Of a DNA stretch of 64,000 nucleotides, positions 5,612 through 27,624 are shown piece after piece (positions within the stretch are counted from its first letter, which is position 1; every line of letters starts with the position of its first letter). Source of the stretch: a virus (Duplodnaviria > Caudoviricetes); the IMG/VR virus record IMGVR_UViG_3300037507_003370, positions 64,001 to 128,000 of that record; one strand, 5' to 3'. Made by a program: the position numbers and the translations under genes. Below the pieces are notes generated by a model. The model worked only from the letters and a program-made list of their open reading frames with translations. It did no database searches and was not told where the DNA came from.

Positions 5612-8600
5612 ATGTACGAACAGCATATAACTAAACCAATACAAATTATCCAGTACAAGGGAACAGAAGACATAAGCCTAGTGCCTGATTATACTTTTTC
5701 TTATGCTGTCAATATTTCTAATAATATTAGTTTTGCAATAGCTAATGGTATTCAAAACAATCAATTAGTTCTTCTAAGTACTCAGTCTAATCCTAATGAA
5801 AATGGATTGTATATCTTTAAAAATAATATTCTCAGTAAATATTATGAGTCATTTTTTAAAAATGTACAAAAAATTTATAAAGTCAATAAAAATTCTGCTT
5901 ATGAAGTATATTTTGGTTTATTAGATAATTTTAATCAATTCACTACGATAACACCTAACGAAACATACATTATTGTTTCCAAGGAAAATGCTAGTTTACC
6001 ATATATTTGGTATTCTACAGAACAGTCTTTTGATTCGTCTATATTGTTCGATATGGAGATTATTCAAAAGAACTTTTCTAGTTCAGATGGATCGTCACTA
6101 GACCCTATAAACAATGTTATATCTCTAGACCTGGCTAATAGTTTTGATTTCAGACCTGTTGTTTTTACTACTAAGCTTACTCCAAGTTCTGTTAGCAAAG
6201 AATACATATTAAAATTAGATTTTATTCTTGCTGGTGATGCTGAGTATTATGATGTTTATGATTTTGTACTTAGAGATATCGACGTTTTATCAAACACAGA
6301 GAATGAACTTTCTTTAAATTCTGAATTTTTATCTAATAATAGTCTTTTTATTAAGCACAATCAACTATACTATTTTGTAGAATCTTACAATAATGTCAAT
6401 GGAATATACAAATATAATATAGAATCCAATACATTTACTATTGTTCCTAATTCTGAAGATATCGTTCGTCGTAAATTATTTGTGATAGATAAAAGAATAA
6501 AAAGAATTAAGAGTGTTAAGGATAATGTATATATTAATAATATTCTATATATGCATCCTCCTAAATTACGTCAACAAGATAGTTCTTATGGATTTTATGA
6601 GATACAAGCATCATTAATTAATCCAAGTAATGGAGCAGTAATCAGCGTAGATAAATATTGTTTCAGTATATCTCCAACATCATTAAATTTACCGACCCCA
6701 ACTCCAACATTAACTCCTACGCCGAAGCAACATAGTGTATCATTTGCTGATGCTCCGATACTCAATATTAATTTTTGTGATTATGGTTCTTGTTTAAAAA
6801 CCCCTATTAAATTTACAGCATCCAATCTTTCAGAAACATCAAATTATATTTATGAATTAGGAGTTATAGAATATGGACACGCTAATCCTGATAACCCACA
6901 AGATTTATTAAAAACAGAATTTATCACATTTGATTCTTCTGCCGGAATCCTTCCTCTAGGATATTCTTCGTATTGCATTGAATCATTCATGTCAATATCT
7001 GATAGGATTAGATCTATTATTTATGTAAAAGTAACTAATATTGATAATAACATTAGTGCAACTAATACATTAGAAATAAATTTGTGTGATAGAGATTTTT
7101 GTCCACCACTTCCGACACCTACGAAAACTCCAACATCAACGTTACCGGCCTATCCAACAAGAACACCAACAAGGACAAGAACAAGTACTCCTACTAGTAC
7201 TCCAACAAAAACTCCTCGTGGAACCCAAACAGTAACGCCAACCCCCACATTTACTCCAACTAATACAGCAACACAAACCATAACACCAACAACAACAGCA
7301 ACACAAACTATAACGCCAACAGTCACCCAAACAGCTACTCAAACTCCAACTGTTAGCCCATCCGTATCTGTAACACCCACAATATCACCCTCTTTAACAG
7401 CAACACCGACTATAACTCCTACTAATACTTCTACGCCAACACAAACCACTACCATAACACCAACATCAACAATCACTCCTACAATTACTCCAACTCCCAC
7501 TTATACGTCAACGCCTACTCCATCTACAATGGTTGATGCTTTGATTAGTGTTGGGAGAAATGACGTAGCACAGTTAGCAAGAAATACCTTTTTTGACTCT
7601 GTTGACAGTAATAGTGTTTGCTCTTTCGATGTTATTAATAATATATTCGTAGACTATACTATTAGTAGTCCAACAAATATGGTTTTAGCAGGACTTACTA
7701 CGTATATTCCAAGTTCTCCAACAAAAACTATGTTCATTGGTAAGTATCTGAAATCCTCACAAACTCATAGAGTATTAAGCGCTGGAGCTAATGGAACTAC
7801 TAATAATAGACTATTAAGAAAATTTGCTGGAACAGCAGATTATTCTTTTGGAGAAATAAAGACTTCTCCTTATGCTACTGGAGATAATGAGCTGTCTAAA
7901 GATCTAATAGAATTATTAGACACTAGAGAATGTAATAATCCCATAGCTATATCCAATTTTTCTGGTCAGCAAACAGTATTTGTGGGAATTACTGACAAGA
8001 CTCTTTTTAATAGAAATATAGCAATTTACGATGACGGAGTAGCTGCAAGTGTTATAACACAAAATCTAATTACAAATATAACTTTTTCATCCAATATAAC
8101 TAAACTGAGAGATATTGCTCCATTAGCTTTAACGTCATCTAGCACCAGAACCAATCATGGATGTTTAGCATTAGTAGAATCAGAGAACCAAGAAAAAGCT
8201 CTTATTTTTGTAAATAAAGAAGGAACAGTGATAGAATTTGCTTTTGCTGGCAATAGGAAATTACCAAGGAATACTAATATACTAAGCGTGCATACAATAT
8301 CGGCAGCTTCGGATAGTAATGTAACATCAGGTATATACTTATTAATTAAAGATATAGATAATATTAATCGTATATATTATTCTAGCATATCGTCTGGAGT
8401 AGCTTCTTATCCGTCTTCTATTACTATAGGTACGTCCATAGTATCGGCATCCAATACAAATACTAACGTATATTTAATCGGAGCTAATGGCAAGGTATTT
8501 TCTGCTGGAGCATTGAGTAATTTGGGTAGAATAGCTACGGTGAATGTATTCGGAGAGATAAGTATTCCGGCTAATCATACCGTAAGCACCATCAAAGACA

Positions 8601-24700: not shown

Positions 24701-27624
24701 GTGCAAGACATTATCTTAAAGTTAACCAAGCAGTCAGAATAGTTAATATTGATGGAATAAATCCAGATAATGTTTATTATGTTGTTCAACCGTATCTAAC
24801 AACTAACACATTCGCCGTATCTGCTACCCCAGGAGGAGATACGTTACCAATTTCTACATTAGTTCCTAATTCTGAATTTTATGCAGATTTTGGGGAATAT
24901 TTGATAATAGAGCCTCTTGAAGATATATATAAGCTCAACGAATTATTCGGTATTAATAATACTAAACATCTTTATGAAATACAGGGCTCACAAATTCCAT
25001 CTTTATATAATGATCCTAATGGTCTTGGATATGGTATTGATTATGGATCCTCTGACAATAGCGATTTAATTAACTTGATTAGCAAAATTAATAGTTATGA
25101 TAGTATTAGTAGGGCCGCTAATATTGAAACTTGGGAATACAATCCTAATTCTTGGAAAAATAATATGGAAACATGTATGGACGTTAGGCAGTGTATTAGG
25201 TATTGTGCTATGGAGACCGTATTAGGTAAATTTGACGGTTTTGTTTATGGGCAAAATAATACATATTTGCACATTGATAGTTCTAATATAGCGAGACTAT
25301 TGCCTTGGGGTAATGACTCCTGTTTCAGCAACAGTGCTGTGTTTTTTCTTCCATATGTATATAACGGCTCCGCAACGAGCATCGAAGAAATATCATTCGC
25401 TACATTTTATACTAGGGTTATGTCTAATGCTTCAACTAGACAAATGTATATAGAAGAATTATACGCTTTCTACAACTTTTTACAATCTTACAAAACATCC
25501 ACATTACAGCCTTATATAAATAGTGCATTAAATACAAAAACTAATGATTATTTATCAGATACCAAATTACTATCAACTCAATATGATGCGTCTACATCAA
25601 ACATAAGCATCTCTCACATTAATTCATTATCACCTTACTTAGACTTATTCATGGCATTGCCGTCCATACCAGAATTTTTTACTGCTTCGAGAAATATCGG
25701 CCATATAACAGAGTTCAACATTGTTCAGTTAACTTGGAGCTCTGTTACCACAAGACTTGATAATAGTCTAATATCAGGAGATTCTGTAGCTTATTATGTT
25801 ATAGCATCATATCCCCATTGCCCTGCTGCGTCAGACGCAGATGTGGTGGCTGACGCTTTTAATGGATATCGTGTTGCAACAATACTAGACGACGGAGCCT
25901 CTATTTATTCTACACAAATTGATTTGACAACTATACCATTAGATGTTATGTCCGATGGAGGATTCAGATTTTGTATTATTCCTGCTATTTTAGTTGACGG
26001 AAATATTGATACTCCGACAGTAAAATTTAGAACAGAATATACCCCACCATTTGCCGTATTGGCATCTTCTTATACTCCGGATCCACCACCTTTTCCAGTA
26101 GGAGGGCCCAGCCCAACGCCTAGTGCCACACCAACAAATACTCCAACCTCGACTTTATATTCTACTCCAACAGCCACTATAACATCAACACCCACTAGAA
26201 CTCCCAATATTACTCCTACTAGAACATCAACAACAACACCATCTATAACTCCTACTAAAACTACAACCAGAACACAAACACCTACTTCAACAGCAACTAA
26301 TACTCAAACAAGAGCAACTCCTACTCCCACAAGCACTGTGACGAGAACTAATCTTGCGTCCACGCCAACCAACACAATAACTCCAACTTTAACAGTATCT
26401 AATACTCCTACGAGAACACCAACAGTAACTCCTAGTTTAACAGTATCTAATACTCCTACCAGAACACCAACAGTAACTCCTACGGTTACAATGGCCACTC
26501 CAAATGCAGCTAATTATTTCTATGGAGCAACTTGGAACGGAACAACTGGTAATGTTACTACAGTTGGCACCAACGGCGGTCCAAGTTATTGGGGCACTTA
26601 TGATCAAAGCGGTAACGTGTTTGAATGGACAGATACGGTTTCTCCAATTGGTCATAGAACGATTAGAGGAGGATCATTTGATTATGGTGCTAATACTTTA
26701 GCAAAATCTAATAGAGCAGTAATCAATCCTTCTGACGAAAGTCCAAGTATTGGATTTAGAGTGTGCTCTGCATCTAACATATTAAATATTGGTACTTTTG
26801 TAAGAATATCTGATATAAATAATCCAGCAGATACAACAGGATATGGTAATGTTGACTATATCTATATGATAAGTGCTTTTGAAATAACAAATTCTCAATA
26901 TGTAGAATTCTTAAATGCTATTGCTTCTACGGATAATAATGCTCTTTATAATATCTCAATGTCAACAAATCCTAGAGCCGGTATAGAAAGAGTAGGATCA
27001 AACGGATCTTATTCTTATTCTGTAAGACCAAATATGGGTAACAAGCCAGTTAATTTAGTTAGTTGGTATGACGCTGCAAGATATGTTAATTGGTTATGTA
27101 ATTTTAAACCAACAGGATCACAAAATGCCACAACAACAGAGGATGGCGCATATAATTTAGTTAATCCTGAATCATATCCAGTAAAGAATGTTATTAATCC
27201 AAACACTGATCAAAATATCTCATATTGGATACCAGGAGAAGATGAATGGTATAAAGCAGCACATTACTCTGCTAATCAAACAAATTTAAACTCATGGACA
27301 TATCTCAATGACAATGATCTAGGAGTAACTAGTTCTTTTCCAGTAGCAATAGAGCCACAGATCCAAGTTGGATGGAGAATAAGAACAGGAGCATCTTGGT
27401 CAACAGTAACTAGTGTAAATTATACTGGAGAACCACCATATCCTTGGACCATATCCATAAGTCCTGGAGTATTAGACACAACAGGAGATGGAGGAGGAGA
27501 GAATGTTGGAGTATATACATTCTATGAGTCGATACCATCTTCAGCATACTTTACATATGCTACTAAAAATAATAATACTCCAGCTATAGTTTCAGCTAAT
27601 AGCAATGGAGACGGAGTAAGATAA
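18751..27624 (+). CDS. Giant mosaic fibre protein (2957 aa): FGE-sulfatase/CLec domain with dockerin-like inserts, 7-blade RCC1 propeller, CotH kinase domain, permuted FGE/CLec domain, PT stalks
   Basis: FGE motifs [60 protein letters not shown]1 repeats WG.N..GQLG and AG..H.LAL. CotH motifs [29 protein letters not shown]....NN.YL, LPWGND. Confidence 0.85.
20839..21267 (+). repeat. Thr/Pro-rich coding tract
   Basis: About 143 codons of TPTxT repeats. Confidence 0.95.
22093..22569 (+). repeat. Thr/Pro-rich coding tract inside RCC1 repeat 3
   Basis: About 159 codons of TPTxT repeats. Confidence 0.95.
23926..24123 (+). repeat. Thr/Pro-rich coding tract between the RCC1 and CotH domains
   Basis: TPTxT repeats. 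Confidence 0.95.
26107..26502 (+). repeat. Thr/Pro-rich coding tract before the permuted CLec domain
   Basis: TPTxT repeats. Confidence 0.95.
26389..26484 (+). repeat. Near-perfect in-frame 48-bp tandem duplication ([15 protein letters not shown] x2)
   Basis: The unit ttaacagtatctaatactcctac(g/c)agaacaccaacagtaactccta starts at 26389 and again at 26437. Confidence 0.9.

Follow-up and report, generated by a model that had tools for sequence, protein, structure and literature searches.

Four consecutive large proteins with long threonine/proline tracts in the tail operon of an uncultured lake phage as probable accessory tail-tip proteins

Four consecutive open reading frames (ORFs), A, B, C, and D, were analyzed on the plus strand of a 64,000-nt stretch of viral DNA (Duplodnaviria; Caudoviricetes; positions 64,001 to 128,000 of IMG/VR record IMGVR_UViG_3300037507_003370), which is called the window here. 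Together the four ORFs encode 7,307 residues, and the data support a description of their products as beads-on-a-string arrays, in which binding-type and enzyme-like modules are carried on long spacers rich in threonine and proline (PT tracts). We consider it probable that A to D sit at the tail tip as accessory proteins, where extended spacers display their binding and enzyme modules, and that these modules have been gained and lost at the PT tracts. As a variant of the modular receptor-binding proteins of phages, the locus is real and rather striking. A glycocalyx made by the phage itself, the most exciting feature that a first-pass annotation had proposed for it, is unsupported by comparison with related phages.

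First, the PT tracts were located by a sliding-window scan (at least 60% T+P in 20 aa). Nine long tracts of 37 to 172 aa were found, eight of them at least 75 aa long, which bears out the annotated count of at least eight long Thr/Pro tracts between globular modules. Their lengths were 148, 118, and 75 aa in A, 37 aa in B, 90 aa in C, and 154, 172, 75, and 146 aa in D. A short tract was present in A at residues 352-374 and a Pro-rich stretch in C at residues 120-143, and the nine long and three short tracts together made up about 1,060 of the 7,307 residues. The tracts contained 40-49% Thr and 10-20% Pro (on average about 44% T, 18% P, and 8% S), with T+P amounting to 57-64% in the nine long ones. 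They alternated as T-x, with TxT at about 37-40% of positions, and their charged residues were mostly basic (52 K+R vs 13 D+E). The PT-coding DNA was degenerate, with copies 60-70% alike and few recent duplications of 30 or 48 nt. None of the eight neighboring large ORFs covered by the window scan held such a tract, so the PT enrichment in A to D is far beyond chance. Every PT tract was flanked by modules that were recognized by Pfam or conserved, which is the arrangement of PT-box linkers. Long Thr/Pro tracts are recurrent in uncultured viruses, since a stricter pattern (four or more consecutive TPTx periods) was found in at least 120 other IMG/VR contigs (loci L115-L194), including phage contigs of 100-320 kb and giant-virus bins (GVMAG). 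The literature searched gave no account of long Thr/Pro tracts in phage tail proteins, nor of a CotH domain in phage tails.

The modules between the tracts were then assigned. Of those listed in the first-pass annotation, LamG, FN3, RCC1, CLec, and CotH were confirmed by Pfam. FN3 was found at A 1955-2046, and LamG (ConA-like; PF13385, E 2e-11) at A 1287-1397 when the excised segment was searched; D contained two RCC1 blocks, FGE-sulfatase/C-type-lectin-like (FGE/CLec) modules at both its N and C ends, and the CotH match (Table 1). The dockerin-like module was not confirmed, as the Dockerin_1 match in D (E 0.46) scored 11.2 bits vs a cut-off of 22.9 and covered one loop only; the two isolated EF-hand-like loops in D, at residues 211 and 339, lie 128 aa apart. 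Cohesin gave no match in the Pfam scans of the window ORFs searched, and with no dockerin passing the cut-off the proposed cellulosome analogy falls. B contains seven FN3-like units, in which the motif YEIKVG recurs, and its C-terminus looks like a BNR/Sortilin-type propeller. The segment A 644-1083 is at best RCC1-like and is a lead only. Residues 1-105 of D are a distant relative of the Ig-like domain that members of the A family have ahead of their first long PT tract. In C, the Cys-rich domain (window 17884-18690) was weakly related (32-34% identity) to an internal domain of a dn5-like giant protein in two related records, G006 and G008, and showed no detectable relation to dn5 of the window itself. 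PDB sequence searches with the CotH module and with the C-terminal CLec module returned nothing usable. A separate RCC1-repeat protein of 792 aa is encoded at window 55981-58359 on the minus strand, between both halves of a split DnaE; its RCC1 part distantly resembles the second such block of D (28% identity), and tblastn against 20 related loci matched the protein only in G001 and G002, the two closest relatives.

A and B share a common N-terminal domain (28% identity, E 1e-8), here called the anchor. Residues 1-497 of A correspond to an entire protein of 518-523 aa in G001 and G002; this homologue stops about 40 residues into the PT tract, and A runs on for another 1,900 residues. A word-indexed homologue search with A 1-497 found nothing and an exhaustive hidden Markov model search was needed; a peptide-pattern scan of IMG/VR likewise found neither the anchor nor the Cys-rich domain of C. 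When the anchor profile was run against 1.84 billion representatives, only four full-length members (523, 687, 1647, and 2809 aa) were obtained. In all four the anchor starts at residue 1 and is followed directly by a PT tract, and the modules beyond are different (FN3, RCC1, and discoidin, or FGE, RCC1, and F5/8C). In the 2809-aa member the PT tracts lie almost where they do in A, and there is an extra PT-flanked FGE cassette. The A/B family therefore combines a conserved N-terminus with a variable distal part, as receptor-binding proteins do. In PHROG families that carry the annotation head decoration, tail fiber, or virion structural protein, repeat domains were hit weakly but significantly library-wide by the anchor profile, with which they share a motif of about 45 aa. 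Protein D was composite in another way. It corresponds to the N-terminus of one G001 gene together with the whole of the next gene, which has three modules and two PT tracts and whose last module is 56% identical; past its third PT tract, where the G001 protein stops, D adds the CotH and the C-terminal CLec modules. The blocks of homology with G001 end no more than about 11 residues from a PT tract. The PT tracts thus mark the module boundaries at which relatives differ, which argues for evolution cassette by cassette, presumably with recombination at the PT-coding DNA.

The position of the four genes was examined in related records. The 22-kb region had no match by megablast among 50,697 phage records, dn1 (the gene directly downstream of D) had none by tblastn among deposited phages, and the DnaE-N of the window was at most 34% identical to anything deposited. 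DnaE-N at 61-73% identity was found in 144 IMG/VR contigs. The comparison set comprised 20 related records, of which CheckV rated seven as 90% complete or more, and some searches were made on 15 relatives. G001 and G002 were collinear with the window over all 64 kb. A 3074-aa ORF of G006 matched PHROG tape measure families (E 1.7e-27), and its homologue in G001 is the ORF upstream of up1. In every relative examined the gene order was tape measure, up1 family, variable slot, dn1, dn2/dn3, and dn5. Synteny with G001, G002, G006, and G008 puts A to D in this slot, which follows the tape measure gene in the tail module. The spacing is tight (up2-A 2 nt, A-B 13 nt, B-C 10 nt, C-D 57 nt, D-dn1 21 nt), and no convincing terminator was found between the genes from A to D, where terminator-like sites were no commoner than in shuffled sequence. 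Besides its homologues in G001 and G002, up2 had weaker ones in G004, G005, G007, and G009. PDB sequence searches with dn2 and dn3 gave nothing usable.

The content of the slot varied widely. It measures 22 kb with four genes in the window, about 13.5 kb with five genes in G001 and G002 (about 520, 400, 870-900, 1440-1540, and 1150-1170 aa, four of which have PT tracts), and about 2 kb with two small genes and no PT tract in G006. The complete 153-kb records G006 and G008 contained no homologue of A to D and, genome-wide, no TP/TPS tract except one stretch of 27 aa in G008. In G004, G005, G007, and G018, PT-bearing genes stand directly upstream of dn1 on the same strand, and dn1 homologues were always directly downstream of the PT-bearing genes. 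The slot genes of these four relatives include subtilase, RCC1, and FGE modules. In G018 (L109 4414-7431), a subtilase (Peptidase_S8, E 6e-51) is joined to PT tracts in the tail slot. Predicted enzyme cassettes besides CotH occur in the tail slot. CotH itself was absent from all 15 relatives searched, 10 of which have PT tracts, and it was rejected as a general partner of the tracts. The most widely shared slot element across the relatives was the C-terminal FGE/CLec module of D, which is 42-46% identical to modules in the dn1-adjacent gene of G004, G005, and G018 and 53% identical to a free-standing 311-aa protein of G006 (L094, G006:34681-35616, minus strand). The module is collinear with all of these, so its order of domains is the native one of an entire subfamily. 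It was also observed, in independent assemblies, that in several relatives slot proteins terminate in a free PT tail beyond which no module follows; the last tract of these proteins measures 24 to about 60 aa, within a PT-rich C-terminal region that can reach about 200 aa.

Table 1. Coordinates of the four ORFs, their tracts and modules, neighboring genes, the glycosyltransferase (GT) cluster, and slot proteins of relatives that end in a free PT tail
Feature	Record	Positions	Strand	Remarks
Protein A, 2477 aa	window	5612..13045	+	Anchor 1-351, short PT, Ig-like 375-495, PT 496-643, possibly RCC1-like 644-1083, PT 1084-1201, LamG-containing 1202-1878, PT 1879-1953, FN3 1955-2046, unknown C-terminal module 2047-2477
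PT tract A1, 148 aa	window	7097..7540	+	
PT tract A2, 118 aa	window	8861..9214	+	Spanned by independent contig (X5 record 17)
PT tract A3, 75 aa	window	11246..11470	+	Spanned by X4 record 10
Protein B, 1461 aa	window	13059..17444	+	A-related anchor 1-146, Ig-like to about 285, PT 303-339, seven FN3-like units 340-1170, BNR/Sortilin-like propeller 1171-1461
Protein C, 412 aa	window	17455..18693	+	PT 12-101, Pro-rich 120-143, Cys-rich domain 144-412 (18 Cys)
Protein D, 2957 aa	window	18751..27624	+	Ig-like 1-105, FGE/CLec-like 125-530, PT 689-842, RCC1 843-1109, PT 1110-1281, RCC1 1282-1721, PT 1722-1796, CotH-containing 1797-2441, PT 2442-2587, FGE/CLec-like 2588-2957
PT tract D1, 154 aa	window	20815..21276	+	Spanned by X3 record 6 and X5 record 22
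PT tract D2, 172 aa	window	22078..22593	+	Spanned by independent contig
PT tract D3, 75 aa	window	23914..24138	+	
PT tract D4, 146 aa	window	26074..26511	+	Spanned by X3 record 8
CotH domain match, D 2046-2261	window	24886..25533	+	PF08757, E 5.5e-17, profile positions 79-285 of 322
C-terminal FGE-sulfatase/CLec-like module of D	window	26512..27621	+	PF03781, E 1.9e-16
up2, small conserved protein	window	4932..5609	+	Homologues directly before the A homologue in G001/G002, 37-40% identity
dn1, conserved tail-module protein	window	27646..29715	+	Closes the variable slot; homologues in every relative tested
GT cluster	window	46603..53230	-	Pfam; not shown to belong to the fibre system
GT4a	window	51503-53230	-	GT4 gene of the cluster
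GT4b	window	50350-51582	-	GT4 gene of the cluster
Free-PT-tail protein	G001	17038-18609		
Free-PT-tail protein	G001	27348-30872		
Free-PT-tail protein	G004	49676-51226		
Free-PT-tail protein	G005	75856-77295		
Free-PT-tail protein	G009	78427-79113		
Free-PT-tail protein	G009	79640-81181		

The conserved N-terminus with a variable distal part, the position after the tape measure gene, the extracellular-type modules without signal peptides, and the dispensability of the genes in complete relatives together lead to the tail-tip picture. No signal peptide was found at the N-terminus of A, B, C, or D when the translations were read. Protein C as a whole contains 25 Cys, and such Cys content and extracellular-type domains in proteins without signal peptides fit export by virion assembly and lysis; as far as gene order and translations go, the tail-operon position and the missing signal peptides would fit virion-borne adhesins. 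In the arrangement that we propose, a proximal part, either the A/B-type anchor or a small Ig-like domain or both, would attach the protein to the tail, and globular modules joined by Thr/Pro spacers, probably extended, would follow. Most of the modules are predicted to be of a glycan- or protein-binding kind (LamG, FN3 arrays, RCC1/BNR propellers, and FGE/C-type-lectin-like modules), and at least one would be enzyme-like, CotH here and a subtilase in a relative. The spacers would hold these modules tens of nanometers off the tail, so that hosts would be captured over a wider radius and the host envelope could first be touched in a multivalent, reversible way; if each residue spans about 0.3 nm, full extension sets an upper bound of about 100 nm for the spacers of A and about 160 nm for those of D. 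The set of modules would evolve by gain, loss, and swapping of PT-flanked cassettes. The brush of adhesins and enzymes around the virion that the first-pass annotation described is thus retained as binding and enzyme modules on PT stalks, and its placement around the particle is not, because a slot that follows the tape measure gene suggests a tail-tip location.

The tracts might also be more than spacers. They could be modified by phage GTs encoded elsewhere in the genome than the GT cluster, by enzymes of the host, or (a possibility confined to this phage) through phosphorylation by the CotH-like kinase module within D, and we regard such a modification as rather improbable. There is a precedent in Bacillus subtilis, where CotH polyphosphorylates the low-complexity Ser-rich repeats of the proteins CotB and CotG, with D228 and D251 as its catalytic Asp residues (PMC7821199). 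The CotH module of D lies between Thr tracts whose charged residues are mostly K/R, and the free PT tails of several relatives may point to a role of the tracts beyond spacing. However, the absence of CotH from all 15 relatives, 10 of them with PT tracts, means that it cannot explain the tracts generally, and a kinase role of the module is a prediction from the domain match. The inventories of GT2 and RgpF do not follow PT content either: G009, the record richest in PT matches (88), has no GT2/RgpF match, and G003, which has no PT match, has five such matches. A wider proposal, in which the tracts are putative mucin-like stalks modified by phage or host glycosylation or by CotH phosphorylation and form a hydrated brush at the tail tip, with their coding DNA serving as recombination seams that shuffle cassettes among lake phages, is in our judgment doubtful.

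Several points weigh against the assignment of A to D to the tail tip. The coincidence of homology-block ends with PT tracts is trivial in part, since low-complexity sequence fails to align. Pfam and PHROGs gave the anchor no tail-fibre family; its structural model had a predicted local distance difference test (pLDDT) score of 70, and its best matches in PDB and BFVD reached a TM-score of at most 0.25 and were of a weak multi-beta-sandwich type. With a pLDDT of 36 the model of dn1 was unusable, and it is by synteny alone that the genes flanking the slot count as tail genes. The A/B anchor is missing from C and D. Nothing like the trimeric beta-structures of classical fibres was seen in A to D, and no cultured relative was found among deposited phages. 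Alternatively, A to D might be non-virion late proteins, encoded in the tail operon by chance, that are released at lysis or act on the host envelope. The enzyme-like modules, CotH here and the subtilase in G018, would suit such a role, as would the fact that no fibre fold or trimer signature was recognized in searches with the anchor model, and complete relatives do without A to D, which are therefore dispensable for particle assembly. However, the genes stand tightly spaced between the tape measure and conserved tail genes, the conserved N-terminus and variable C-terminus are typical of virion-attached receptor-binding proteins, the anchor motif is common with virion structural PHROGs, and none of the four proteins has a signal peptide. 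We therefore take a non-virion role to be unlikely and keep the tail-tip assignment.

The first-pass annotation had further suggested that the stalks may be glycosylated by the GT cluster of the phage, which would make a phage glycocalyx. In this reading the Thr tracts would be densely O-glycosylated in the cytoplasm and so become mucin-like stalks. Glycosylation of PT-box linkers is known from secreted cellulases, so that for particles assembling in the cytoplasm it is no direct precedent. Over 75-172 aa the tracts resemble the PTS domains of mucins and PT-box linkers in composition, and the cluster includes two GT4 enzymes. The nearest solved relatives of GT4a were B736L of chlorovirus PBCV-1 (E 1.8e-5) and pneumococcal Gtf1 (E 0.0035), although the matches cover only the generic nucleotide-sugar domain. 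Phage-encoded glycosylation of virions has been described for mycobacteriophages Che8 and Rita (Freeman et al. 2023, as given in PMC11256854).

The co-occurrence of PT fibres with the GT cluster, which had been proposed as a check, was analyzed in the 20 related records, and no co-variation was found. The coding pattern TPTxTPT was present in 12 records (33 matches in the window) and absent from eight, among them the complete G006 and G008 and the 91%-complete G003. GT4a was present in all 20, including the complete G006 and G008 with neither PT tracts nor A to D homologues, and is a core gene of the phage group; the core of the cluster was syntenic with the replication genes in all relatives. 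GT4b was retained in PT-free relatives and was absent or very weak in six PT-rich ones (G004, G009, G013, G014, G017, and G018), and the GT2/RgpF counts of G009 and G003 given above run the same way. Relatives that kept PT fibres and had lost the GT genes, the case named in advance as refuting the link, were not seen, and the link still has no comparative support. As far as gene content goes, the PT tracts appear to come and go independently of the GT cluster. Since the GT core is in every relative, PT-free ones included, the target of the cluster is one common to all of them and not the PT tracts specifically. No ThyA-family hydroxymethylase was found in 15 relatives, so a role of the cluster in DNA hypermodification gains no support. 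Glycosylation of the tracts by this cluster is therefore quite unlikely.

Finally, the assembly was checked. The longest exact repeat in the region was 25 nt. Contigs from four other lake runs, which are not marked as a possible source of the record, showed no differences in pieces of up to 3.2 kb and spanned tracts A2, A3, B1, C1, D1, D2, and D4 as well as the B-C-D junctions. At least 16 metagenome runs from lake water contained gene D almost unchanged in sequence (at least half of its sampled words), and the frames of all four ORFs were open across the 22 kb. No RNA data set holding gene D was listed. The short joints seen among metagenome contigs were cross-matches of 20-22 nt to PT-coding DNA of other organisms. 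The suspicion that the giant ORFs are chimeras mis-joined at low-complexity PT-coding DNA, which the 60-70% identity of its repeats and the many short cross-matches in lake metagenomes might raise, is essentially refuted already by these identical contigs, runs, and open frames and by the lack of longer exact repeats. A separate observation concerned window 21674-23007, which includes tract D2: summed contig depth there was 190-490 in four lake metagenomes vs about 5 elsewhere. Some other abundant lake organisms carry DNA at least 90% similar to this segment over short runs.

The window as a whole has 33% G+C. Its first 44.8 kb form a plus-strand block of very large ORFs, followed by a minus-strand replication block (split DnaE, exonuclease, PD-(D/E)XK nuclease, dNMP kinase, primase, and DnaB). 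The plus-strand block ends with a small Cys-containing protein (window 44290-44787; DUF6171 / phrog_13558), of which at least two paralogues are scattered in G006 and G008.

To our knowledge, very little has been learned about how uncultured freshwater phages recognize their hosts. The locus points to a receptor-binding build unlike textbook trimeric fibres, in which one exchangeable slot of the tail operon encodes monomer-like chains of modules (lectin-type, propeller, and enzyme) on long Thr/Pro spacers. The range of this slot among relatives, from about 2 to 22 kb, offers a natural series for the expansion of a host-capture apparatus, and the occurrence of the Thr/Pro pattern in other IMG/VR contigs suggests that the design may be widespread but undescribed. 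The question of glycosylation is narrowed as well, since a conserved GT cluster needs a target shared by all relatives.

Comparison with known systems showed partial likenesses in each case. As in Che8 and Rita of cluster F1, GTs are encoded by the phage and virion-type proteins carry potential O-glycosylation sites; unlike in those phages, whose capsid proteins were shown to be glycosylated according to Freeman et al. (2023) as given in PMC11256854, the present case consists of genes only, and the GTs do not co-vary with the tracts. The FGE-sulfatase/CLec-like module at the distal end of a tail-operon protein recalls the Mtd-type tips of BPP-1. Diversification of this tip by a diversity-generating retroelement was rejected, as no template repeat of the 26.5-27.6 kb region was found in the window and reverse transcriptase (RVT_1) was absent from 15 relatives, in which respect the locus differs from BPP-1. 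The tracts of A to D are like the PT-box linkers of cellulases in composition and in their position strictly between globular modules, and an extended conformation is presumed for both. Typical PT-box linkers are several times shorter. The tracts also differ from them in that they alternate T-x instead of strict PT and occur in signal-less proteins of a phage tail operon with no dockerin or cohesin. Ig-like and FN3 decoration domains on phage particles are thought to give weak carbohydrate adhesion, and A to D likewise carry FN3 and Ig-like modules on structural-operon proteins; unlike those decorations, they are here part of very large multi-module tethers, with seven tandem units in B. Modular tail proteins with conserved N-terminal attachment and exchangeable distal modules are known from the side fibres of T-even and lambdoid phages and from the carbohydrate-binding decorations of lactococcal baseplates. 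No sequence or fold match between the A/B anchor and characterized fibres was found in PHROGs, PDB, or BFVD. The proteins resemble modular receptor-binding proteins in their position after the tape measure, conserved N-terminus and variable C-terminus, glycan-binding-type distal modules, and paralogous sets per phage. Unlike side fibres, they use Thr/Pro spacers of 75-172 aa instead of trimeric beta-helical or coiled shafts, and unlike characterized fibres they reach 2,500-3,000 aa and include RCC1, CotH, and FGE-like modules.

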